DNA of 34,911 nucleotides, from contig SKWY01000299.1 of NCBI GenBank assembly GCA_007128675.1, positions 1 through 34,911 of the forward strand, given 5' to 3'. Positions 1,873-15,435 of this stretch are shown here, in pieces; position 1 is the first letter of the stretch; the number at the start of each line of letters is the position of its first letter. A program made the translations under genes and the position numbers. A model generated the notes under the pieces. The model did no database searches and had not been told where the DNA came from. It worked only from the letters and a program-made list of their open reading frames with translations. Source of the DNA: Deltaproteobacteria bacterium. Its GTDB lineage: Bacteria; Myxococcota; Myxococcia; SLRQ01.

Positions 1873-3654
1873 GTGGTGGCCGAACCCAAGCTCATCAGCG
1901 ATCTGAAGCGCACTCATTCTTGCGGTAGCCTGCGTGCGGGGGACATTGGCGAAAAGGTGGTCCTTTTCGGCTGGGTCCATGGGCGCCGCGATCTTGGCGG
2001 CTGCGTGTTCGTGGATCTTAGGGATCGACATGGTCTTACGCAGGTAGTCTTCGATCCGACGGTCGAGGCCACGGCCCACGGCATGGCGAGCGAGCTGCGC
2101 GGTGAGTACGTGGTCGGGATCCAGGGCACGGTGCGTTCTCGTGGGCACCAAATCAACGAGAGCATGCCCACCGGTGAGATCGAGGTCGCGGCCAGCCGGG
2201 TGGAGATATTCAGCAAGGCCGATACTCCGCCTTTTCACATAGAGGACGAGATCGACACGGGCGAGCAGCTTCTGCTTCGTTATCGCTACCTGGATCTTCG
2301 CCGTCGCCCTCTCCAGAACATCCTCGTGCGTCGCAGCCGCATGGCCCAAGCCACTCGCACCTTTCTCGATTCAGAAGGCTTCTTGGAGCTGGAGACGCCC
2401 TTTCTGACCAAGAGTACCCCCGAGGGAGCTCGTGACTATCTGGTCCCTTCGCGGGTGAACCCGGGCAAGTGGTTTGCCCTCCCGCAGTCGCCCCAGCTCT
2501 TCAAGCAGCTCTTCATGGTGGCCGGTTTCGATCGCTACTTCCAGATCGTGAAGTGCTTTCGTGACGAGGATCTACGCGCTGATCGGCAGCCGGAGTTCAC
2601 CCAGATCGATCTCGAGATGTCTTTCGTCTGCGAGGAAGACGTCCTTTCCTTGGTCGAAGGCATGATGAGCGCGATACTCGAGGCGGACGGTAAGGAAGCC
2701 GTCCCCAGGCCGTTTCCTCGATTGACCTTCGATGAAGCAATGAGCCGGTTCGGCTCGGATAAGCCGGATGTCCGTTTTGGGCTGGAGCTGGTGGACGTCT
2801 CCGATATCGCTCGGAAGAGCGGTTTTCGAGTCTTCGCCGACGCCGTGGACAAAGGCGGAATCGTCTCTGCGATAAACGCAAAGGGCGCGGATCTCTCTCG
2901 CTCCAAGATCGACGGGCTGGCCGAGGAGGTGGCGATCCACGGGGCCAAGGGCCTTGCTTGGGCGAAGGTGAAACCGGAGGGTTGGCAGGGTCCCGTGGCG
3001 AAGGTGGTGAGCGAGCAGGCAAGGGAACAGATCGTGGAGAGGCTCGGTGCCGTCCCGGGCGACGTGCTCTTCTTCGTAGCCGACAGAAGGGAGGTCGTCT
3101 TGGCTTCCCTTGGTCACCTGCGCCTCGTTTTGGGCGAGATGTTGAGCCTCATTCCCAAGGATGTCCTCTCGTTCGTATGGGTGACCGACTTCCCCTTGCT
3201 CGACTACGACGAGGAGCAGGGAAGGTGGGTGGCGCTGCATCATCCTTTCACCTCTCCCAGGGAGGAGGATATTCCCAGGCTCGAGAAGGATCCCGGATCA
3301 GTCCGTGCAAGAGCCTACGATCTCGCCCTCAACGGCAACGAGATCGGGGGCGGGTCGATTCGAATCCACGATAGAAGCGTCCAGGAGATGGTATTTCGAA
3401 CTTTGGGACTCTCCGAGGAAGAGCAGCAGGCGAAGTTCGGCTTCCTGTTGGATGCATTCAGGTTTGGCGCACCGCCACATGGCGGCATAGCCATGGGCTT
3501 CGATCGGATCGTGATGCTACTGACCGGGGCCAGCTCAATCCGCGACACCATCCCATTTCCCAAGACCCTAAGGGCCGTGGACGTCATGACCGACGCGCCC
3601 AGTGAGGTCGATTCGAGGCAGCTAGAGGAGCTTCACGTCAAGAACGTCCTCTGA
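1873..3654 (+). CDS. aspS: Aspartyl-tRNA synthetase (class IIb)
   Basis: 593 aa. Class II motifs are present (FQIVKCFRDEDLRADRQPEFTQIDLEMSF, GGGSIRIHD, GIAMGFDRIVMLL). GTG start is preceded by GGAGGAGG. Confidence 0.97.
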   Translation: MVAEPKLISDLKRTHSCGSLRAGDIGEKVVLFGWVHGRRDLGGCVFVDLRDRHGLTQVVFDPTVEATAHGMASELRGEYVVGIQGTVRSRGHQINESMPTGEIEVAASRVEIFSKADTPPFHIEDEIDTGEQLLLRYRYLDLRRRPLQNILVRRSRMAQATRTFLDSEGFLELETPFLTKSTPEGARDYLVPSRVNPGKWFALPQSPQLFKQLFMVAGFDRYFQIVKCFRDEDLRADRQPEFTQIDLEMSFVCEEDVLSLVEGMMSAILEADGKEAVPRPFPRLTFDEAMSRFGSDKPDVRFGLELVDVSDIARKSGFRVFADAVDKGGIVSAINAKGADLSRSKIDGLAEEVAIHGAKGLAWAKVKPEGWQGPVAKVVSEQAREQIVERLGAVPGDVLFFVADRREVVLASLGHLRLVLGEMLSLIPKDVLSFVWVTDFPLLDYDEEQGRWVALHHPFTSPREEDIPRLEKDPGSVRARAYDLALNGNEIGGGSIRIHDRSVQEMVFRTLGLSEEEQQAKFGFLLDAFRFGAPPHGGIAMGFDRIVMLLTGASSIRDTIPFPKTLRAVDVMTDAPSEVDSRQLEELHVKNVL

Positions 3655-3665
3655 AAGGAGGGGCC

Positions 3666-5330
3666 GTGTTCGACCTCATCGTAATCGGTGGAGGCGTGAA
3701 CGGCAGCGGCATCGCAAGAGACGCTGCGATGCGCGGCTTGTCGGTCGTGCTATTGGAGCGGGAGGATTTTGGGGTGGGGGCCAGCGGCAATAGCTCCTGG
3801 ATGGTGCATGGCGGTGTGCGCTACCTGTTCTCCGATCCGACCGTCACTCGGGACTCCTGCCGGGACTCCGGGTACATCCAGAAGATCGCATCGCACCTAA
3901 TCTTCCGGATTCCCTTCTTGATGCCCACGGTCGGTGGCAGGCCCGGCGGGCATCTCATGGATCGTGGCTATTTGTACGGCGTGGAGAGCTTCCTTGGGGT
4001 CTACGATCGATACCAGCCTCTGAAGCACGGCAAGCAGTCGGTACGCCTCTCCGCCAAGGAGGCCTATGACATCGAGCCTGGGCTACGAAGGGACATCGTG
4101 GGGGCGGCGACGCTGGACGAGTACGGCATAGACGCGTTCAGGCTTTGCGTGCTCAATGGTCTGGCCGCTTGTGAGAAGGGAGCCGATATTCGCACTTGGA
4201 CCGAGGTCGAGAGACTACTCCGTGATGGGAGCGGTAGGGTGCGGGGCGTGCTTGCCCGAGACAGGCTGACCGGAGACGTGGAGGAGATAGAAGGGAAGGT
4301 CACCGTGAATGCCGCGGGGGCTTGGTCGCCTCGCCTCGCGGGCCGAAACGGCCTTTCCGTGAAGATGAGGCCGGGCAAGGGGATCCACGTCGTTCTCGAC
4401 AGGAAGATCTCGAACTATGGCATCATCTCCCAAGCGGTCGATGGCAGGGATGTGTTCATCATCCCCCTCGAGACATCCTCGGTCATAGGAACGACGGACG
4501 ATGACTTCTATGGCGATCCGGGTCAGATCGAAGTGACCAACGACGAGGTCTCCTACCTTTTGGAGGCAATCGAGCACCTGCTCCCCGAAATAAGGAAGGC
4601 CAGGGTCATAAGGACCTACGCCGGTGTGAGGCCTACTCTCTACGAGTACGGCAGAAACGAAAGCGATCTCTCTCGGGATCACGCGATAGTCGATCACGCG
4701 GCGGAGGGGGCGCCGGGAATGCTGTCCATGGTCGGCGGCAAGCTCGCGGCATATCGAATGATGAGCGAGGAAGCCGTCGATTTGGTCGAGGACGCGCTTG
4801 GTCGTCCGCGCTCGAAATGCAGGACGGCGCTGGAGCCCCTGCCTGGAGGGGCTCCTCCACTACCCGACCCGGCTCTCTTGTCCGAGAAGTACGAGACGCC
4901 TCCCTGGGAGACGGAGCGGCTCGTGCATCGTCAAGGTAGCAGAGCCGAGGATGTGCTCGTCCTAACCAAGGATGAACCTGCTCTTCGGGCGCCGGTCTGT
5001 CAGTGTGAGGGGGTACTCGGCGCGGAGCTGGTTTGGTGCATGCGCAACGAGCACGTACGGCGTCTTTCGGATCTGATGCGCCGCTGCCGGCTCGGCCATG
5101 GACCCTGTGGGGGGACCCGCTGCGCCAGGACGGCCGCGACTATCTTCGCAAGGGAGCGAGGCCTCGATGCCGAGGCGGCCATGGCGGAACTCGTGGATTT
5201 CTTGGAAGGCCTCTGGCGCTTTCGCCGGCCGGCCCTCGATGGGCACCAGCTGGCACAGGAGGAGCTTGCTCGGGGCATTTGGCTGTCGTCCGCTGGGCTT
5301 GACGAGCCCGCGCGGGGAGGGTGCAGATGA
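3666..5330 (+). CDS. glpA: Anaerobic-type FAD-dependent glycerol-3-phosphate dehydrogenase, subunit A
   Basis: 554 aa. N-terminal dinucleotide fold (DLIVIGGGVNGSGIARDAAMRGL). C-terminal BFD-like 2Fe-2S Cys cluster (CQCEGV...GPCGGTRC), as in E. coli GlpA. RBS AAGGAGGGG. Starts only 11 nt after aspS. Confidence 0.85.
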   Translation: MFDLIVIGGGVNGSGIARDAAMRGLSVVLLEREDFGVGASGNSSWMVHGGVRYLFSDPTVTRDSCRDSGYIQKIASHLIFRIPFLMPTVGGRPGGHLMDRGYLYGVESFLGVYDRYQPLKHGKQSVRLSAKEAYDIEPGLRRDIVGAATLDEYGIDAFRLCVLNGLAACEKGADIRTWTEVERLLRDGSGRVRGVLARDRLTGDVEEIEGKVTVNAAGAWSPRLAGRNGLSVKMRPGKGIHVVLDRKISNYGIISQAVDGRDVFIIPLETSSVIGTTDDDFYGDPGQIEVTNDEVSYLLEAIEHLLPEIRKARVIRTYAGVRPTLYEYGRNESDLSRDHAIVDHAAEGAPGMLSMVGGKLAAYRMMSEEAVDLVEDALGRPRSKCRTALEPLPGGAPPLPDPALLSEKYETPPWETERLVHRQGSRAEDVLVLTKDEPALRAPVCQCEGVLGAELVWCMRNEHVRRLSDLMRRCRLGHGPCGGTRCARTAATIFARERGLDAEAAMAELVDFLEGLWRFRRPALDGHQLAQEELARGIWLSSAGLDEPARGGCR

Positions 5331-6598
5331 TGACTACCTCGTCCGATGTTCTCGTGGTTGGAGGAGGTATGGCCGGGGCCGTGGCGGCCCTAGCCGCGGC
5401 GACGCGAGGCCGCTCTGTCACGCTCCTTAGAAAGGCCCCCGGAGCCACGGCTCTTGCCAGCGGCGCCATCGATCTCGCGCCCATGGGGGAGCAAAGGCAT
5501 GTGACGAGTGTTGCCGTTGCTTCGGCGACTGCCGGCTGGCTCGAGGCGGTCGCTTCCAGATCTCCCTCCCATCCTTACTGCGCCGTCGGTCCCCGCGGGC
5601 TTGCCCTGATTGGTGACGCGGCGGACATGATTCTGGGTCGCCTGGCCGACGCCGGGCTTCCCCATGCCCCCTTTGATGCAAAGGGGCGAGGACATCTCGT
5701 GGTCGACCTGACAGGAAAGGTCAGAAGAGTTGCCAGCGCCCAGGCATCACAAAAGCTGGAGGAAACGGAGCCGGGGAAGCGACGAATAGGCGTAGTCCGC
5801 TTCCGCCGCCACCTTTCCCTCGATACGGGACTCACTCTCGCCGGACTGCGCGCGGTATTTGCCAACGTGGTACCCGTGGAGGTGGACTGGCCCGATGAGG
5901 CCGACGGAGCCTTCCTGTTGCCCGTGGAGATTGGTAGAAGGCTCGATGATCCTCGTGGGCGATCCGCGCTCTTCAAGCTTCTTCGCACGGCTGTTGCTGG
6001 GAAGAGGCTCACTCATCTAGTTCTTCCTCCCATCGCCGGCTTGGAGCACGTCAGCGAGGTCATGCGCGCCGTCTCGGATGTGACGGGCACCAAGGCCGTC
6101 GAGACTCTTGGCGGAGAGGCCTCCTTGCCTGGCCACAGGCTAGATAGGGCTCTTAGCCGCGCTCTCGAGGCCGCGGGCGTTCGTTTGGAGACGAATGCCC
6201 ACGGGGCATCCGATGGCAAGCTGAAGAGATTCCCCGGCGCCATCGTGCTCGCTTCGGGCCGCTTCATCGGCGGCGGCCTCGAGCGAAGAGATCGGCTTCG
6301 AGAGACCATCTTCGATTTGCCCGTCGACGATGGAGCACGCCCGATCAAGGACGAGCCCCTCGATGTCTTGACCTCCAGAAGGGGTCTTGGTGCGCACCGG
6401 GTTTTTCGAGCGGGCATTCGGATCGACGAGAACCTTCGGCCTCTCGATGTGGGTGGCAAGCCTTTTCGGGAGGGCTTGTTCGCGGCGGGCTCGGTGATAG
6501 GAGGTCATGATCCGCAAGCGGACTTTTCGGGCATGGGAGTGGCGATTCTCACGGGTTATCTCGCCGGGCTGCGCGCGGCGGAGTGGAAGAGGTCATGA
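5321..6598 (+). CDS. glpB: Anaerobic glycerol-3-phosphate dehydrogenase, subunit B
   Basis: 425 aa. N-terminus (DVLVVGGGMAGAVAALAAATRGRSVTLL...GATALASGAIDL) parallels E. coli GlpB. Probable start is the ATG at 5327, forming an ATGA overlap with the glpA stop. Confidence 0.7.
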   Translation: MQMMTTSSDVLVVGGGMAGAVAALAAATRGRSVTLLRKAPGATALASGAIDLAPMGEQRHVTSVAVASATAGWLEAVASRSPSHPYCAVGPRGLALIGDAADMILGRLADAGLPHAPFDAKGRGHLVVDLTGKVRRVASAQASQKLEETEPGKRRIGVVRFRRHLSLDTGLTLAGLRAVFANVVPVEVDWPDEADGAFLLPVEIGRRLDDPRGRSALFKLLRTAVAGKRLTHLVLPPIAGLEHVSEVMRAVSDVTGTKAVETLGGEASLPGHRLDRALSRALEAAGVRLETNAHGASDGKLKRFPGAIVLASGRFIGGGLERRDRLRETIFDLPVDDGARPIKDEPLDVLTSRRGLGAHRVFRAGIRIDENLRPLDVGGKPFREGLFAAGSVIGGHDPQADFSGMGVAILTGYLAGLRAAEWKRS

Positions 6599-7137
6599 AG
6601 CAGCTAATAAGGCGTTTTCGGGCTCTGGCGCTCCTGGGTATCCAGGCGTTGATCTTGCAGCCAATCAAGAGGCTGCGGAACCTCAAGGTCTCGGGAGAGG
6701 CTCGTTTCCTGGAAGCCTACACACCCGATCGTCTACTGCCTCTGACCGTCGAGGAGAGAAGGAGGCGCGATCGATTCAATGCCTGTATCAACTGCGGCCT
6801 ATGCGATGTGTCATGCGACCTATTGGCATCGGTTCGACGAAGCAGGCTGCCCTCCTTGTCTTCCGTTGCTGTTGGCTATGGCCGCTCGATGACCGAGTAC
6901 CCCTTCGCGCGGCTATCCCTCGAAGAGCTTTCGTCCTGCGACGATTGTCTCCGTTGTGAGGCTGCATGCCCACGTGGGGTTCCGCTCAAGGAGATGATAG
7001 ATGATCTTTTGGCCCATGCCACACGACTGGATAAGGCGGGCTTCGGGATGAAGCGTCTTTCCGCGGGCAGTGGCGGGGCGCTGGAGCTGCCTGAGAAGAG
7101 GCCTCTTGCGGCCGCTGGCATGGAGAAGTCCGAATGA
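6595..7137 (+). CDS. Small 2x[4Fe-4S] ferredoxin-domain protein with a hydrophobic N-terminal helix
   Basis: Two Cys motifs are present: CINCGLCDVSC and CDDCLRCEAACP. The N-terminal segment LIRRFRALALLGIQALILQPI is hydrophobic. The ATG at 6595 overlaps the glpB stop (ATGA). An alternative GTG lies at 6583. Confidence 0.6.
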   Translation: MKQLIRRFRALALLGIQALILQPIKRLRNLKVSGEARFLEAYTPDRLLPLTVEERRRRDRFNACINCGLCDVSCDLLASVRRSRLPSLSSVAVGYGRSMTEYPFARLSLEELSSCDDCLRCEAACPRGVPLKEMIDDLLAHATRLDKAGFGMKRLSAGSGGALELPEKRPLAAAGMEKSE

Positions 7138-8771
7138 GCGCCGTGGTCGAGAAGCTACACTCACGGATCGCCGAGGTGCTAGGTCGCCGTTTCGTGACCG
7201 ATGACGCCGAGCGCCTCGAGGCATACTCCAGGGATGCTTGGTCTCGGGTGTTTCTGGCTGCCCGGGAAGGTTGTTCGACCCCCTCTCCCGATCTCGTTGC
7301 CTGGCCGGCCGATGTCGAGCAGGTGGCGGCCATCATGGGTCTTGCCCGCCAGGCTGGGTGCCCCGTCGTCCCATACGGTGCCGGCAGCGGAGTGTGCGGC
7401 GGCACATATCTCTTGGATGGGGGGCTCATCATCGACCTGAAGCGAATCGATCATGTGGGAACGGTGGACCGGCAGGATCGGCTGGTGGAGGTCGGAGCTG
7501 GAGCCCTTGGAGAGCATTTCGAGCGACGTCTGGCGCTCCAGGGCTTCACCTGTGGACACTTTCCCTCCTCCATGTACTGCTCCACGGTAGGTGGCTGGCT
7601 GGCCGCTCGGAGTGCCGGCCAGATGAGCTCTCGTTACGGCAAGATCGAGGATATGGTCAGCGGCCTCACCTTCGTCGATGGTACGGCTCGAATACGGCGG
7701 CTAGGCGCCAGGCCGCGAGCCGGGGCCGGTCCGGATCTCATTCAAACCGTCGTGGGAAGTGAGGGAACTCTAGGCGCCGTGACCGATGCGGTCTTGCGGG
7801 TGCATAGGGCGCCGGCTGTACGAAGAATGCGTGGTGTTCTGATGCCATCGCTGGAATCCGGCGTCGAGGCGGTTCGTAAGATGTTTCAGGCTGGGCATCG
7901 TCCCGCCGTCGTGCGCCTCTACGATCCGCTGGACACGTTGGTCAACAAGGGCAAGGGCACGGATACGGGCGGCGGTGTCGTCTCCTTTCTTCGGCGGGGG
8001 CTCGGCAAGGCGCTGCCGAAGAGCGGTAAAGGTAACAAGAGGCGAACTCGGTCGGCAATCGTCGATGCCGTTTTGACTCGACCGAGGTTCTTCGGAGAGC
8101 TTCTCGATCGCGCGGCGGGCTCGTGCATGCTGGTTCTGGGTTCCGAGGGTCAAGATGCTAGACTGGTGGACTACGAAGCAAGAGAGATACTGAGTATCTC
8201 TCTTCGTCTAGGAGGCCTAGATCTCGGCGAGGCTCCCGGTGAGCACTGGCTCTCTCATCGCTACTCCGTGAGCTTCAAGCTCACCCCCGCCCTCGATATG
8301 GGACTTTTCGTGGACACCCTGGAAACCGCTGCCACCTGGGGGCGCGTCCTTGGGCTCTATCATGCCGTGCGTCAGGCGGTGCGCGAGCACGGCTTCGTCA
8401 TGGCTCATTTCTCTCACGCTTACGAGGAGGGGTGCTCGATCTACTTCACGCTGGCCGGTAGCGCGCCGGATCTGCAAGGAAGTGAGGAGGCCTACGATCG
8501 CTTGTGGCGGGCTGCCCTCGATGCCGTGGTGGCTGGAGGGGGCACAATCAGTCACCATCACGGCGTCGGCATGAGCAAGCAGGCTTTCATGCACAAGGAG
8601 CATGGAGAAGGAGGGATGGTGCTTCTGCGAGCGCTGAAAAAGGCCCTCGATCCCGACGGCATCATGAACCCGGGCAAGCTGGGTCTGGGCGGTGGACCAG
8701 AGCTTCCGGGAGCTCCCTGGAGGGTGACCCGAGCCGGCAGCGGCCGTGGCGGCTGGAAGGTGGCGGCATGA
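7134..8771 (+). CDS. FAD-linked oxidase (VAO/PCMH family), alkyl-DHAP-synthase-like large subunit
   Basis: 545 aa. FAD-binding segments (VVPYGAGSGVCGG, GSEGTLGAVTDAVLRV). The C-terminal ISHHHGVGMSK plus DPDGIMNPGKL match the AGPS HHH loop rather than the GEHGIG of GlcD/D-lactate dehydrogenases. ATGA overlap with the upstream gene. Confidence 0.8.
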   Translation: MSAVVEKLHSRIAEVLGRRFVTDDAERLEAYSRDAWSRVFLAAREGCSTPSPDLVAWPADVEQVAAIMGLARQAGCPVVPYGAGSGVCGGTYLLDGGLIIDLKRIDHVGTVDRQDRLVEVGAGALGEHFERRLALQGFTCGHFPSSMYCSTVGGWLAARSAGQMSSRYGKIEDMVSGLTFVDGTARIRRLGARPRAGAGPDLIQTVVGSEGTLGAVTDAVLRVHRAPAVRRMRGVLMPSLESGVEAVRKMFQAGHRPAVVRLYDPLDTLVNKGKGTDTGGGVVSFLRRGLGKALPKSGKGNKRRTRSAIVDAVLTRPRFFGELLDRAAGSCMLVLGSEGQDARLVDYEAREILSISLRLGGLDLGEAPGEHWLSHRYSVSFKLTPALDMGLFVDTLETAATWGRVLGLYHAVRQAVREHGFVMAHFSHAYEEGCSIYFTLAGSAPDLQGSEEAYDRLWRAALDAVVAGGGTISHHHGVGMSKQAFMHKEHGEGGMVLLRALKKALDPDGIMNPGKLGLGGGPELPGAPWRVTRAGSGRGGWKVAA

Positions 8772-10000
8772 GTCTCATCCAAGACCTCGAAGGAGTGGGG
8801 CTCGGGCTGTCGAAGGGCCAAGACGGGGCCATCAAGGCATACCCCCTCGATGCCGAAGAAGTGCAGGCTCTCGTGCGAACATGCAGGAGGGCCAAGGAGC
8901 ATGTCCTCTTGGAGATAGACGGCTTGCCTCCTACACCTCTTTGGGCGCCTCAAGAGGGCATGGCCTTCTCGTCCGCCGACGAAGAGACCCGAGTATGCGT
9001 CGATCTAGGCAAGATGAAGGCCGTTGCCCTGGATCGCGAAAGCCATCTCGTCAATGCCTTTGCCGGCATTTCCGTAAGTGATCTGGAGGAATACGTCTCG
9101 GAGCACGGCTTCACGTTGGGGCTCCAGGATCCTCCGGCTCTTGCCGTCGGTGCCTGGCTTGCCTTGAATGAGCCTGGGCCGGGATCGCGGCTGGCGTTTC
9201 CTGGATGGAGTCCCGTGGCCGCGGTGGAAGCGGTCCTTTTGGAAGGGAGCCTGATTCGAACCTCTCGTGTCCCCCGAAGCGCCACCGGACCGGACCCAAA
9301 GGCCCTGCTGATCGGGGGGAAGGGGCGTTTGGGAGTGATTACTCGCGTTACGCTAAGAATGTACCCGGCGGCCCGGGGCAAGAGAATCGTGATGGCCTTT
9401 GCCGACGCCGCCGACGCTGTGGGCGCGGTCATCGAAGCGCTTGGCCAGGACCTCGTTCCCGATGCCTTTGGGCTGCTCGATGGCGGGATTTCCGAGAGCG
9501 TGCTTGCCTGGGAGGTTCGAGGCGATCCGGGGCGGGTAGCTCGAGTGTCTCTGGCAATCGACGAGGTGGCGGCCTTGAACGGGGGGCGCCGCTTGGCCTC
9601 CATCGTGCGGGAGCCGGGGGCCCAAGGCGAGATGCTCAAAGAGCCTGAAGTGCCCGGCCTTGGCGATCTAGGGGCTGCCGGCCCGGTCGAGGTGCGGGCC
9701 GCCGCCGCGCGAAGGGCAGGGCGTAGGCCCGAGCCTTCGGTAGCGATAGGGTTTGGAGCCAGATGGTCCAGGATCGTCCTCGTTAGGCGGGCGCTCATAA
9801 ACGAACTGGGAGGGAGCGTAAGGCTCCACCTCGAGAAGGCTCTGCCGGAGGGGGGCATGGGGATAGCTTGTGTCGATTCCGAGAACTCTCCAAGGGCGCG
9901 TGACATCATAAGGCAGGCAGGTGGTTTTCCCGTGGGTGACGAAGAGTCCGAGAGCTGGATAGAAGGCGTCGCCGGCACCCTTCTAGGAGAGGCCCCATGA
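8768..10000 (+). CDS. Divergent FAD-binding PCMH-domain protein (GlcE-like second subunit)
   Basis: The ATG at 8768 overlaps the upstream stop (ATGA). The segment GPDPKALLIGGKGRLGVITRVTLRMYP matches the FAD_binding_4 core. The N-terminal FAD motif looks degenerate. The 8504 start in the ORF track is an out-of-frame overlap artefact. Confidence 0.6.
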   Translation: MSLIQDLEGVGLGLSKGQDGAIKAYPLDAEEVQALVRTCRRAKEHVLLEIDGLPPTPLWAPQEGMAFSSADEETRVCVDLGKMKAVALDRESHLVNAFAGISVSDLEEYVSEHGFTLGLQDPPALAVGAWLALNEPGPGSRLAFPGWSPVAAVEAVLLEGSLIRTSRVPRSATGPDPKALLIGGKGRLGVITRVTLRMYPAARGKRIVMAFADAADAVGAVIEALGQDLVPDAFGLLDGGISESVLAWEVRGDPGRVARVSLAIDEVAALNGGRRLASIVREPGAQGEMLKEPEVPGLGDLGAAGPVEVRAAAARRAGRRPEPSVAIGFGARWSRIVLVRRALINELGGSVRLHLEKALPEGGMGIACVDSENSPRARDIIRQAGGFPVGDEESESWIEGVAGTLLGEAP

Positions 10001-11337
10001 CGGCCAAGCAGAACCCGCGCGCCATGGACGAGAAGGGGGCCGATTCGGGGCCCACAGGTCTTCTCGGTCTCCACGATAAGGCACAGCGATACTGCAACCT
10101 TTGCCCCCGTCTGTGCCACCACAGCTGTCCTGTCTCGAACGCCGAACGAGACGAGACCGTCACTCCAGGACACAAGAACGCTTTGGCAGGCAGGGTGGCC
10201 CGTGCCATCAGACCCCTGGATGAAGAAGCGGCCGACATCTTCTACAAATGCGTCAACTGTGGCCTGTGCACGACGGTCTGCCAGCACGAAAACGATGTCT
10301 CCGAGAGCCTGCTCTCGGCTCGTGCTGTGGCTGTTCGAGCAGGGCTCGAGGCGCCGGCGCTGGCCGAGCTTCGAAGGAGTTTCCATAGTTTCGGAAACGC
10401 TTGGCTCGAGGATCTTCGGCCCAGGCTTCGGGATTTGGTCCCAAAGGATCTTCGGGTAGGTGATGGCGCCGCTAATCATGCCGGGCTTGGTGGTCGAGAA
10501 AGAGGCGCGGGGCGTTCGAGAAGGAAGCTTCGGGTGTACTGGCCCGGCTGCGCGGCGGTTGCGCGCCGGCCTGATCTGGTCTCCTTGACCCTCGAGGTCC
10601 TCGGCCGGCTTGGTGAGGGGGACGTCAAGGTCTATTGCGGCGATGAGGCGCAATGCTGCGGCTATCCTCTGCTCGCTGCCGGACAGCACGACGCATTCGT
10701 CGATCAAGCTAGGAAGGCCTCTCGTGCTTTGTCGGGCGCCGATGTCATCTTCACTGCCTCGCCAGAGTGCGCGTGGACCTTTGCCGTTGCGTGGCCGCGC
10801 CGCGCCGGCTTGGAGCCCCCAGCGAGGCACGTCGGCCATGTGGTCGATCTGCTCTTGCCCGCCGTCGAGCGTGCTCCGATGCAGAGCCCCCTCGACTTGG
10901 ATGTCGTCTATCACGACCCCTGCTACCTGGGGCGCTTTCTTGGCCGCTTCGATGAGCCTCGAAGCATTTTGAAGCGCCTGCTCCAGCGGCCGCCGGTGGA
11001 AGCCGGATCCTGGATTCGAGACGAGGGGTACTGCTGCGGTGCTGGCGGGGGGCTCGAAATTACGAGCCCCGACACCTCCCTTTCGATAGCTCGTGCCCGC
11101 GCCGGTCATCTTCTTGGGGTGACGACGGGGCCTCCCGGGGAGCCGGCGAGCCAGGCAGAGTTAGCTCGGGCTTCCAAGAATAGGCATATAGCCACCGCTT
11201 GCACCCGGTGCTCGATTCAGTTTGGTGAAGTCGGCGCCAGCGCCGTGGATATCGTGGAGCTTCTGGCTCGTTACCTTGGGATCGAAGGCGCCGCCAATCA
11301 TCCACGGCTAGAGGACGAGAGAGGAGGAGGCCTGTGA
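9997..11337 (+). CDS. Fe-S oxidoreductase with two 4Fe-4S motifs and two CCG domains (GlcF/GlpC/HdrD-like)
   Basis: Cys motifs CNLCPRLCHHSCP and CVNCGLCTTVCQ, followed by CCG motifs CCGYPL and YCCGAGGG. ATGA overlap with the upstream gene. Confidence 0.8.
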   Translation: MTAKQNPRAMDEKGADSGPTGLLGLHDKAQRYCNLCPRLCHHSCPVSNAERDETVTPGHKNALAGRVARAIRPLDEEAADIFYKCVNCGLCTTVCQHENDVSESLLSARAVAVRAGLEAPALAELRRSFHSFGNAWLEDLRPRLRDLVPKDLRVGDGAANHAGLGGRERGAGRSRRKLRVYWPGCAAVARRPDLVSLTLEVLGRLGEGDVKVYCGDEAQCCGYPLLAAGQHDAFVDQARKASRALSGADVIFTASPECAWTFAVAWPRRAGLEPPARHVGHVVDLLLPAVERAPMQSPLDLDVVYHDPCYLGRFLGRFDEPRSILKRLLQRPPVEAGSWIRDEGYCCGAGGGLEITSPDTSLSIARARAGHLLGVTTGPPGEPASQAELARASKNRHIATACTRCSIQFGEVGASAVDIVELLARYLGIEGAANHPRLEDERGGGL

Positions 11338-12287: not shown

Positions 12288-12959
12288 CTAGCTCGTGGCC
12301 TGAAGGAAGGCAGCTGCGGCGGCTTGGGGAGAGTCGGATGCGATCACGGCCCTTATGAAGGCCACGCCGGCTGCCCCGGCTTCCAGCATTTGGCGGGCGA
12401 GCCTAGGGCAGGTCACTCCGCCGAGGGCGTAGACGGGAAACCTCTGTCCCTCCCTCGTGCGGATACTGGTCGCGGCCTCCAGCGCCTTGATTCCGACCGG
12501 GGGGCCGAACCTGCGCTTGCTGGGAGTATCAAGAACGGGCCCAAAGGTGACATAGCTGGCACCGGCCTCGGCGGCCGTTCGAACCTCCTCGAGGCTATGG
12601 GTCGAGACCCCAATCGTTGCCGATTCTCCCAGGAGAGTGCGGGCTATGTCGGGCGGTAGGCCCGAGGAAGGGAGGTGGACGCCATCGGTCTCAAGGGCCA
12701 GAGCGATGTCGACCCGGTCGTTCACGAGAACTGGTGCTCCCGCGGTTTTGGCAACCTTTCCCACACGGGCTACCAGATCGTGAAGCTGACGTGCCGACAG
12801 ATCCTTTTCCCGTACCATTACGGCCATCTGGCCCGAAGATGCGCCCAAGACGGCCTGCCGTATCGCCTCCACGAGGGCGCGGGTTCGATCGCCGTCGTGA
12901 GCCCGCAGGGCATTGCGGTCGGTAATCAGCAGGAGCCTGAAGCCTGGGGGGGTCGGCAC
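12288..12959 (-). CDS. thiE: Thiamine-phosphate synthase
   Basis: 223 aa. Motifs LLLITDR, VNDRVDIALA, DGVHL, GVSTHS and YALGGV are present. GTG start lies 6 nt after the thiG stop. Confidence 0.9.
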   Translation of the reverse strand: MPTPPGFRLLLITDRNALRAHDGDRTRALVEAIRQAVLGASSGQMAVMVREKDLSARQLHDLVARVGKVAKTAGAPVLVNDRVDIALALETDGVHLPSSGLPPDIARTLLGESATIGVSTHSLEEVRTAAEAGASYVTFGPVLDTPSKRRFGPPVGIKALEAATSIRTREGQRFPVYALGGVTCPRLARQMLEAGAAGVAFIRAVIASDSPQAAAAAFLQATS

Positions 12960-12965
12960 TCTGAC

Positions 12966-13772
12966 TCAAACTCCAATGCGCCCTTCGATTGGGCTAGAGG
13001 CGGTGGCGTAGAGCTTCATAGGTATCCTGCCCGACAAGTAAGCCTCTCGGCCGGCCTCGACGGCGAGTCGCATGGCCCTGGCCATGCGCACGGGATCGTC
13101 CGCTCCCGCAATGGCAGTGTTCATGAGCACCGCATCGCATCCCAGCTCCATGGCCACCGCGGCATCGGAGGCCGTTCCCACGCCGGCATCCACGATGACC
13201 GGCACTGTTGCCTGCTCCAGAATGATGCGAAGATTGTAGGGGTTGCGGATGCCGAGCCCCGATCCTATCGGAGCGGCCAGCGGCATGACGGCATGACAGC
13301 CGATATCCTGGAGCTGCCGGCATACGATGGGATCATCGGTGCAGTAAGGCAGAACGGTGAACCCTTCCTTCAGAAGGATCTCGGCGGCCTGGAGGGTGAG
13401 CTGATTGTCCGGAAAGAGCGTTTGATCATCGCCAATCACCTCGAGCTTGACGAGGTCACCCATGGATGCCTCGCGGGCGAGCCTGGCGGTTCGAACCGCT
13501 TCATCCACGGTGAAGCAGGCAGCGGTGTTTGGCAGAAGGGTCATGTTCGAAGGCAACCAGTTCAAAAGGTTCTCATCACCCTGTGCCGAAAGATCGATTC
13601 GTCTGACCGCGACGGTAACCATGTCGGCTCCCGATGCCTCCATGGCATCGCGCATCGTTCGAAAATCCTTGTACTTGCCGGTGCCGACGATAAGGCGGCT
13701 GTTGATTGTGTGGGCCCCTACCCGTAGGGCCCTTTCATTGGGGTTGGTACCGCTATCGAAAGGCATCTTCAT
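12966..13772 (-). CDS. thiG: Thiazole synthase
   Basis: 268 aa from MKMPFDSG. Typical ThiG core ([43 protein letters not shown]). The ATG overlaps the thiS stop (ATGA). The longer 406-aa ORF is an upstream extension through thiS in another frame. Confidence 0.95.
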
Positions 13773-13969
13773 CCTCCACCGATGAAGGAGACGATCTCTA
13801 TCGTGTCTCCTGGCTCGACCGGCGTTTTGTCGTGGGCTGTTTTCGGGACTATGGTGCGGTTCTTTTCCACTGCCACGCGGCTGCTGCGAACGTCTAGATG
13901 AGTGAGCAGATCGGAGATCGTAAGGCCCGCGGGTATTGAGCGGGGCTCCCCATTTATTCTGACATCCAT
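13769..13969 (-). CDS. thiS: Sulfur-carrier protein ThiS
   Basis: 66 aa from MDVRINGE, ending in the ubiquitin-like ...FIGGG C-terminus. An in-frame upstream extension to 14077 is possible but atypical. Confidence 0.85.
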
Positions 13970-14097
13970 TGATTGATTGGCATCGGCCGCCGGGGACCTC
14001 GTCTCTCGATCCGAGGGAGGGGTTCCAGTGGCCATCGAATCTGTCTGAACCTGGTTGCTCGTGCGATGTATGGTCATCTTCTGTAAGCTCGAAATGT

Positions 14098-15435
14098 TCA
14101 GAGGGGAAGGTCGAGGTCTTTGGACATGGCCTCTTCGATCTCTTCCACGGTAATCGGCAAGCCGGCCGAGAGCACCTCATGACCATCGGATGTGACGAGC
14201 ACGTCGTCCTCGATTCGAATGCCTATGCCTCGAAGATCCGCCGGCACGGTCTCATCATCCTTGGGTAGATAGATGCCCGGCTCCACCGTCAGCGCCATCC
14301 CCGGCTCTAGCGGGCGATAAACCTTCTCTTTCTCCAGGTAACGCCCGACGTCATGTACGTCCATGCCTAGCCAGTGGCCGGTGCGATGCATGTAGTAGGG
14401 TTTGTAGGCTTCCTTCTCGATCAGCTCCTCGATGTCGCCATCCAGAACGGCCAAGGATACAAGTCCCTCGGTGAGGCTCCTTACGGCGGCCACGTGAGGT
14501 GCGTCGCATGGTGCCTTCGGCCGGATCGCGTCTACAGCTTTTCTGTGGGCCGCAAGCACGACCTCGTAGACATCCTTCTGGCGAGGCGTGAAGCGACCGG
14601 ATATGGGCATCGTCCTCGTGATGTCTCCGCTGTATCCTTGCACGAGGGCGCCTGCGTCTACGAGTAGCAGCTCACCCTCTCGAAGGGTGGAGCCGCTGTC
14701 CGTGTAATGAAGAATGCAAGCGTTGCTTCCCGAAGCCGCGACGGTCTCATAACTAACTCCCTCGGCTCCGTGTCGTCTGAATACGTACTCGAGGACCGCT
14801 GCAACGTCTCTTTCCAATACCCCTTCGCGGACGAAATGCATCACCGCGAGGTGGCCCTGGCAGGTCACCTGCACAGCTCGCCGCAAACACTCGACCTCCT
14901 GGGGGGATTTGATTAGCCGGTGCTCGTGCAAGACCGTCGCCAAATCGATGGTGGCGTAGGGCACCCGCACTCCGTCACGGGTTCCCATCCGCAGACTACG
15001 GAGCACCGAGTCTATGGAACGATCGAGATCGGGGCGTCGGCCAGAGAAGTAGTAGAGGGCATCGTAGCCTCGCAATAGCTCGGGCAGAGCGGGCTCCAGC
15101 TCCTGAATCGTCTTGGCTTCATCAGCTCCGAAGACTGTCTTGGCCTCGTCGGTGCCGTGGCGGCGGCCCGTCCAAGTCTCGGCCTCCGGGTTTCGGGGGA
15201 GAACGAACAAGGTGAAGGGGTGCTCTTGCCCGGGCCTTAGGACGGCTACGGCCTGGGGCTCCGGAAAACCGGTCAGGTAACGAAAGTCGGCGTCCTGATG
15301 GAAAGGATAATCCACATCATTGCTTCGTCGCACGAGTGTAGCGGCGGGCACGATTGCCATGCCTCGTCCGTGTTTCGTGTCAGCGATGGCCTCGAGCAAG
15401 CGCTCGCGCCGTCGGCGATGAACATCCTTCGCCAT
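14098..15435 (-). CDS. pepP: Xaa-Pro aminopeptidase (M24B)
   Basis: 445 aa. Metal-ligand motifs are present ([35 protein letters not shown]). Confidence 0.9.

Follow-up and report, generated by a model that had tools for sequence, protein, structure and literature searches.

Why would a protein with the active-site loop of alkyl-dihydroxyacetonephosphate synthase (AGPS), a textbook flavoenzyme that uses flavin adenine dinucleotide (FAD) with no net redox change, be encoded in one operon with an iron-sulfur (Fe-S) subunit? The question is raised by a DNA window of 34,911 nucleotides (the whole stretch that was analyzed; contig SKWY01000299.1, assembly GCA_007128675.1), which comes from a metagenome-assembled genome (MAG) of the Myxococcota and derives from soda-lake and alkali-sediment metagenomes. 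The fifth of eight co-directional genes in this window, which run from aspS to a lipid kinase, encodes a flavoprotein of 545 residues, here called P0001. What is probably new is an enzyme of the AGPS lineage in a conserved operon with an Fe-S electron-transfer subunit and a lipid kinase, unlike any studied AGPS, for which a redox link is proposed. Most likely, P0001 would carry out AGPS-type chemistry on a lipid with a dihydroxyacetone phosphate (DHAP) backbone, with its flavin wired to an Fe-S chain. The fuller reading, to which we give a probability of about 50%, is that P0001 may be the catalytic subunit of a membrane-associated, Fe-S-coupled and redox-competent relative of AGPS, whose flavin talks to the quinone pool through the Fe-S subunit.

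The translation of positions 7134-8771 (plus strand) contains the segment AGGGTISHHHGVGMSKQAF...ALDPDGIMNPGKL, from which the original prediction took P0001 to carry the AGPS loop, and residues 469-479 (GGGTISHHHGVG) match the HHH loop of AGPS residue for residue. The loop of the known enzymes had been quoted wrongly as ISHHHGVGK; the characterized AGPS loops read LSHHHGVG(K/Y). P0001 has the two-domain VAO/PCMH layout of AGPS (also ADPS, EC 2.5.1.26; structures 2uuu and 4bby, and MXAN_1676 of Myxococcus xanthus), with FAD_binding_4 (PF01565) at residues 52-190 and FAD-oxidase_C (PF02913) at residues 227-516. The best matches of phmmer against all Protein Data Bank (PDB) sequences are AGPS of Dictyostelium (2uuu, 1.4e-62) and of guinea pig (4bby, 1.2e-54), followed by the weaker mouse D-lactate dehydrogenase (3.4e-35) and a glycolate-oxidase/D-lactate-dehydrogenase entry (1.4e-29). 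In the phmmer alignments, 'gggtishhhgvg' of P0001 falls on 'ggslshhhgvg' of both AGPS structures. Tyr437 occupies the column of the residue changed in the Y578F mutant 4bca, which reads ACIFF there, and the role of this catalytic Tyr in AGPS has been described (PMC3509576). Arg261, Tyr437, His474, His475 and His476 are invariant in 115 homologues, so the HHH motif is a conserved one, not three histidines that happen to stand together. The homology of the HHH segment to the AGPS loop and the conservation of the Tyr, Arg and His residues of the active site are thereby borne out.

The enzymes of the GlcD type have other residues at these positions. In a MAFFT alignment of 49 sequences, GlcD of Escherichia coli and the MAG's own GlcD-like paralogue show GEHGIG and SEHGIG in the HHH columns, and GlcD-type enzymes have a Glu in the Arg261 column and His-type residues in the region where P0001 has its Tyr. 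The score of P0001 with the GlcD equivalog TIGR00387 is 162, against a cut-off of 567.9. The AlphaFold2 model of P0001 has a pLDDT of 88.4, and its top 36 Foldseek matches are all AGPS chains, with TM-scores of 0.66-0.79. Structures of LDHD and D-lactate dehydrogenase come next and superpose on the model nearly as well (TM 0.70-0.73), so the fold comparison alone does not separate AGPS from LDHD-type enzymes. The existing annotations name proteins of this kind alkyldihydroxyacetonephosphate synthase (JGI) or FAD-binding oxidoreductase (NCBI).

P0001 is placed in the AGPS lineage, but outside AGPS proper. A tree of the 49 sequences, built by IQ-TREE under LG+C20, splits GlcD-type enzymes from all HHH-type proteins with support of 100/100, and P0001 is not nested in clades of 2-hydroxyacid dehydrogenases. 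The canonical AGPS enzymes of Dictyostelium, guinea pig and myxobacteria form a clade (99/93) that excludes the P0001 family. This canonical clade is joined at 100/100 by two more clades of bacterial HHH proteins, C and X, again without the P0001 family, which forms a basal grade outside the three clades and inside the HHH superclade. The N-terminal extension of about 110 residues, which in AGPS carries the gating (gate-keeping) helix, is absent from P0001 at the sequence level: its FAD domain begins at residue 52 and that of the Archangium AGPS at residue 165, and the alignment of P0001 to the AGPS structures opens at chain residue 126 in 2uuu and 193 in 4bby. Canonical AGPS and clade C both retain the third catalytic Arg (R447 in Dictyostelium, in a YIRD/YMRD motif), and mutagenesis has shown that the Dictyostelium enzyme requires it (PMC3509576). 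It is not kept in the P0001 family, where the column is variable and holds L, M, Q or S (FKLT, YKMS and others).

The two types of protein can be found together. An Archangium MAG (L060) holds a cluster of the P0001 type and also a canonical AGPS of 631 residues with GGSLSHHHGVGKIR, which is 28% identical to P0001. This canonical gene is followed by a FAR-acyltransferase (FARAT) fusion and then by an epimerase-family gene, the order of the MXAN_1676-1675-1674 operon of Myxococcus xanthus (PMC9131029, PMC13012113). The presence of both in one MAG argues for a distinct role of the P0001 cluster. FARAT was never found beside genes of the P0001 family in the loci examined, unlike canonical AGPS, and no FeS/CCG, lipid kinase or GlpA neighbours were found for canonical AGPS, clade C or clade X in the regions examined (19 kb for clades C and X). 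On these sequence comparisons, P0001 is not an orthologue of canonical AGPS and belongs to a separate paralogous family. The notion of an AGPS-type subunit in a new context is right as to lineage, but the subunit is not canonical AGPS, as it lacks the N-terminal extension and the third Arg. Of the two other clades, X (L104-L107, for example L107:8570-10279, minus strand) carries THHHAVG as its motif and retains Arg and Tyr, while C (L102:8599-10284, minus strand) keeps the Arg as YSRD and adjoins a WYL/HTH regulator.

The genes around P0001 are tightly packed, and each of the six junctions between glpA and the kinase gene is a 4-nucleotide overlap, five of them ATGA and one GTGA (Table 1). The Fe-S subunit has all the expected ligands, which are C33/36/40/44, C85/88/91/95, C220-C221-G and C346-C347-G...C402xxC405. 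It aligns end to end with GlcF of E. coli (22% over 421 residues, E 2.6e-7), and a PDB sequence search found no solved relative of it. The three genes P0001, E-position and Fe-S subunit share the layout of GlcDEF of E. coli (b2979, b4468, b4467), in which a VAO-type flavoprotein is the catalytic subunit, the second subunit is its paralogue and the third has two [4Fe-4S] clusters and two CCG domains. They differ from it in that P0001 has the AGPS residues in place of the GEHG/His/Glu site of GlcD, and their operon contains a lipid kinase in addition. The lipid kinase matches DgkB/BmrU-type kinases in the PDB at 1e-29. To our knowledge, no kinase of the DgkB/YegS/Rv2252 family has been described as the operon or fusion partner of either an AGPS-like enzyme or an Fe-S/CCG protein. 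In the library searched, nothing was found that links AGPS with Fe-S, CCG or GlcF partners, and nothing relevant was found on Rv2251.

Table 1. Genes of the operon and catalytic codons of P0001 in the window
Feature	Position	Strand	Basis
aspS, start of the conserved block	1873..3654	+	Pfam tRNA-synt_2 / GAD / OB
GlpA-like FAD glycerol-3-phosphate dehydrogenase subunit with BFD-type [2Fe-2S] domain	3666..5330	+	Pfam DAO + DAO_C + Fer2_BFD
GlpB-like subunit	5327..6598	+	Best NCBIfam GlpB model at 1e-61; none reaches its cut-off
Small 2x[4Fe-4S] ferredoxin, 180 residues, hydrophobic N-terminal helix	6595..7137	+	Pfam Fer4_8
P0001, AGPS-lineage FAD flavoprotein, candidate catalytic 'D-position' subunit, 545 residues	7134..8771	+	Pfam, PDB sequence match, AlphaFold2/Foldseek, tree
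Arg261 of P0001 = Arg419 (guinea pig) / Arg352 (Dictyostelium)	7914..7916	+	VVRLYDP on SIRLMDN / MIRVYDP
Tyr437 of P0001 = catalytic base Tyr578 (guinea pig) / Tyr508 (Dictyostelium)	8442..8444	+	CSIYF on ACIYF
HHH loop of P0001, His474-His476 (His615-617 in guinea pig)	8553..8561	+	Aligned to SHHHGVG of AGPS structures
Degenerate second flavoprotein-like subunit, 'E-position', 410 residues	8768..10000	+	PF01565 only domain detected
GlcF/GlpC-type Fe-S subunit, 446 residues, 2x[4Fe-4S] + two CCG domains	9997..11337	+	Pfam Fer4_8 + CCG x2
YegS/Rv2252/BmrU-family lipid kinase, 310 residues	11334..12266	+	TIGR00147 158.2 bits (cut-off 118.65); Pfam DAGK_cat + YegS_C

The E-position protein has no GxGxS/GGG FAD loop. 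It is most similar to the second AGPS-like copies that other lineages carry (1e-17) and then to AGPS (1.7e-10), with GlcE of E. coli at just 0.003. Judged by these matches, it comes, in degenerate form, from the AGPS-like lineage itself and is not a GlcE orthologue, and it corresponds to GlcE by position and analogy. The GlcDEF-like neighbours named in the original prediction are thus present, as a protein with FAD_binding_4 alone at 8768-10000 and a Fer4 protein with two CCG domains at 9997-11337, but the likeness stops short of orthology for the first of them. The origin of this subunit may be seen in a few loci outside the myxobacteria, where the E position holds a full-length AGPS-like paralogue. 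HHH, Arg and Tyr are kept in those of L036 (12201-13676) and L041 (5023-6462) and lost in that of L015 (10311-12014). These copies show how a degenerate subunit arose and look like intermediate stages of decay.

The arrangement is conserved among the relatives of P0001, which are numerous at 44-75% identity, the named ones being almost all Myxococcota MAGs; among the carriers of the cluster are MAGs labelled Persicimonas, Microvenator and Haliangium. The neighbourhoods of 82 loci were surveyed, with counts given over the informative ones. An E-like gene lies downstream of the AGPS-like gene in 48 of 56 loci, an FeS/CCG gene lies downstream within 4.5 kb in 42 of 56, and a lipid kinase is downstream in 32 of 53. 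The glycerol-3-phosphate (G3P) dehydrogenase gene is directly upstream in 13 of 59, eight of them with GlpB, the ferredoxin between glpB and the AGPS-like gene is kept in 10 loci, and aspS is upstream in 24. In L002 the order is aspS, AGPS-like gene, FAD_binding_4 gene, FeS/CCG gene and DAGK-type kinase, with glpAB absent. Gene fusions join the same partners: many relatives are fusions of about 940 residues between the AGPS-like protein and the E-like subunit, one of which has an AlphaFold2 model with a pTM of 0.87 over 937 residues, and in L001 the next gene is a 579-residue fusion of a CCG region and the lipid kinase (DAGK). The three-subunit context is real and, as the original prediction had it, unusual for AGPS; it is conserved over about 80 loci and includes fusions. 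A different order is seen in L072, a chromosome-level MAG assembly of 3.4 Mb, where kinase, GlpA, GlpB, ferredoxin and AGPS-like gene follow each other and neither an E-like nor an FeS/CCG gene was detected in the vicinity. When neighbouring open reading frames (ORFs) were clustered de novo, the result was noisy, with spurious antisense ORFs in the GC-rich DNA, and gave only weak extra neighbours, which are lipid-related and recur in loci of the Kofleriaceae/Haliangiales type. Nine loci have a divergent 3-hydroxyacyl-CoA dehydrogenase, six have the apolipoprotein N-acyltransferase Lnt and five have an MMPL transporter; examples are L057:7990-8982 (minus strand), L035:9612-11207 (plus strand) and L078:411-2909 (plus strand).

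The original prediction suggested a redox-active relative of AGPS or a coupling of ether-bond formation to an electron sink, which is plausible and corresponds to the reading favoured here. Three features shape the proposed function. Since the Fe-S subunit is conserved, translationally coupled and sometimes fused, electron transfer is probably part of it. The invariant Arg, Tyr and HHH suggest AGPS-type carbanion and N5-adduct chemistry on an enolizable keto-phosphate, and the kinase and G3P dehydrogenase neighbours point to glycerolipid/DHAP metabolism. The mechanism put forward here builds on the homology, the conserved catalytic residues, the paralogue status, the conserved operon, the gene fusions and the Cys ligands, from which we infer the substrate, the direction of electron flow and the roles of the kinase and of GlpAB. 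P0001 would bind a lipid of the 1-acyl/alkyl-dihydroxyacetone-phosphate type, Tyr437 would take the C1 proton and the carbanion would then add to N5 of the oxidized FAD, giving an adduct that may be stabilized by Arg261 and His474-476 as in AGPS. The AGPS-like protein would pair with its degenerate paralogue, which is probably FAD-free, and the pair would dock on the GlcF/GlpC-type subunit, whose two [4Fe-4S] and two CCG clusters would pass electrons to or from the quinone pool. This chain could serve to make the keto substrate (1-radyl-DHAP) in place by the oxidation of 1-radyl-glycerol-3-phosphate, or it could keep or return the flavin in the oxidized state required for the exchange reaction. 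The phosphorylated glycerolipid would come from the co-translated YegS/DgkB-type kinase, and in the lineage of the window GlpA, GlpB and the ferredoxin may share the same Fe-S exit, which would tie the module to G3P/DHAP.

Several points weigh against this reading. Gene order and fusions show association and not electron transfer to the AGPS-like flavin, and the Fe-S gene is non-adjacent in about one quarter of the informative loci. The reaction of canonical AGPS, a stand-alone non-redox enzyme, takes place without net electron transfer (PMC3509576), so the partner subunits could be structural or membrane-anchoring. As the third Arg is not conserved, the true substrate may be something other than a DHAP ester. 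The Fe-S subunit in the window might also serve only GlpAB, as its GlpC.

The alternative that survives best, although we hold it to be doubtful, is that P0001 is a true alkyl-DHAP synthase, which would convert acyl-DHAP and fatty alcohol to alkyl-DHAP and fatty acid for ether lipids where canonical AGPS is absent. Its partners would then be structural or membrane-anchoring, or would do no more than re-oxidize a flavin accidentally reduced in an anoxic cell. The conserved Arg, Tyr and HHH agree with such an enzyme, and P0001 is the sole HHH-type protein of the MAG, which is 85.6% complete. The MAG also encodes, unlinked to the operon, a stand-alone FAR-type reductase of 401 residues (PF07993; G000:C312, L110:1534-2739) and a PlsB/GPAT-type acyltransferase of 950 residues (G000:C529, L109:424-3276, minus strand); a PlsB-like gene is close by in L002, and the upstream GlpAB would supply DHAP. 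PF07993 is also found in the reductase domains of nonribosomal peptide and polyketide synthetases (NRPS/PKS), which are common in Myxococcota. PEDS1/CarF (PF10520) had no match in the MAG, but also none in the control genomes, and is uninformative here. What counts against a plain synthase is that P0001 stands outside the clade of the characterized enzymes, without their third Arg and N-terminal extension, that it is never linked to FARAT and that it coexists with canonical AGPS in some genomes. The partners of canonical AGPS are FAR-GNPAT and an epimerase-family gene (PMC9131029), in contrast with the Fe-S and kinase genes of P0001, and it is difficult to see why an Fe-S subunit should be conserved, with every ligand in place, for a reaction that brings about no overall redox change.

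A bolder form of the redox-coupled reading, which must be considered unlikely, takes the complex for an oxygen-independent 'hydrogen-borrowing' ether enzyme. It would oxidize the sn-2 hydroxyl of the 1-radyl-glycerol-3-phosphate supplied by the fused kinase, park the electrons on the Fe-S chain and swap or release the sn-1 chain by N5-adduct chemistry. If this were true, one direction would give ether lipids straight from ordinary lysophosphatidate and the reverse would give anaerobic ether-lipid cleavage, a route of which we know of no description. Given its basal position, the P0001 family would also be a surviving remnant of the redox ancestor that gave rise to the non-redox AGPS.

It is rather improbable that the Fe-S subunit and the small ferredoxin serve GlpAB alone, as a split GlpC, with the AGPS-like/E-like pair as an independent non-redox enzyme that shares the operon. 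GlpA- and GlpB-like genes lie directly upstream, and the Fe-S subunit and the ferredoxin, which has two CxxCxxCxxxC motifs and the N-terminal sequence MKQLIRRFRALALLGIQALIL, together resemble GlpC in their Fe-S and CCG content. The GlpAB of the window has no other GlpC candidate, the GlpA-like gene at 3666-5330 is the only GlpA/GlpD-type gene in the MAG, and the ATG of the GlpB-like gene at 5327 overlaps the glpA stop. The NCBIfam GlpC models match both Fe-S proteins, although weakly (29-54 bits, against about 279). All the scores in the window lie below the equivalog cut-offs (369 bits against 552.8 with TIGR03377 for GlpA, 106.9 against 174.15 for GlpB), so that the similarity is at family level only. 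The window also differs from GlpABC in that it has no contiguous glpC, since two flavoprotein genes lie between glpB/ferredoxin and the CCG protein. GlpAB occurs in only about one fifth of the related loci, most of which have the AGPS-like, E-like and FeS/CCG genes with no GlpA or GlpB nearby, and in several loci outside the myxobacteria (L026, L051, L085, L086) the FeS/CCG gene directly follows the AGPS-like gene.

The least probable explanation is an ordinary GlcDEF-like dehydrogenase that acts on a small soluble compound (a 2-hydroxyacid, or derivatives of DHAP or glycerol). HHH/Tyr/Arg would then simply stand where GlcD/LDHD have their metal site, and nothing more than a common metabolic theme would bring the kinase and GlpAB together with P0001. 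This explanation has in its favour the D/E/F-like layout with a GlcF-like Fe-S subunit and the close superposition of LDHD structures, but it is at odds with the absence of the GEHG/His metal motif and the GlcD Glu, the low GlcD equivalog score and the 100/100 split from GlcD-type enzymes. It is also at odds with the relatives in which kinase and CCG protein are fused, since this fusion speaks for a function linked to lipids.

The redox-coupled relative of AGPS proposed here would matter for the history of the enzyme. A widespread AGPS-related family that keeps the catalytic residues and is tied by operon and fusion to an Fe-S subunit could show how AGPS chemistry evolved from GlcDEF-like dehydrogenases, and suggests a redox ancestor of the non-redox enzyme. 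It may also reveal a redox-coupled route by which glycerol ether bonds are made or broken where sediments are anoxic. In surveys of environmental lipids, a protein counts as an Agps homologue when BLAST gives it at least 30% identity to the M. xanthus enzyme and E < 1e-30 (PMC11868695). The P0001 family stands at this threshold (28-30% identity, E about 1e-55 to 1e-62), so it could be mis-scored as a capacity for ether lipids or plasmalogens.

A full-length A-type member is present in 89 of 301 evenly sampled Myxococcota genomes (about 30%, E <= 1e-90). In the same survey one genus with genomes of 9-11 Mb, several of them complete, which is probably Myxococcus-like, has only a canonical AGPS of 640 residues. 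The closest 120 relatives of a member labelled Myxococcaceae are all MAG or unnamed metagenome proteins and include no named cultured myxobacterium. A model-organism orthologue for which published knock-outs could be used was sought among these 120 and not found. With no such orthologue, and with a genus that has the canonical enzyme only, the genetics of M. xanthus (PMC9131029) is silent on the P0001 family. No RNA run was found to hold the window, as only three soda-lake/alkali-sediment runs contain the stretch and all are listed as probable DNA ('DNA?').

No Rfam family was found anywhere in the window. Downstream of the operon, an ORF of 406 residues (12966-14186, minus strand) matches ThiG at residues 156-399 only, and its long N-terminal part probably reflects a start set too far upstream or a thiS frame merged with thiG. 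A plus-strand ORF of 350 residues (12675-13727) with no Pfam or NCBIfam match is probably spurious. It overlaps a minus-strand ORF of 223 residues (12288-12959), which is kept directly after the operon in L008 at 56% identity.

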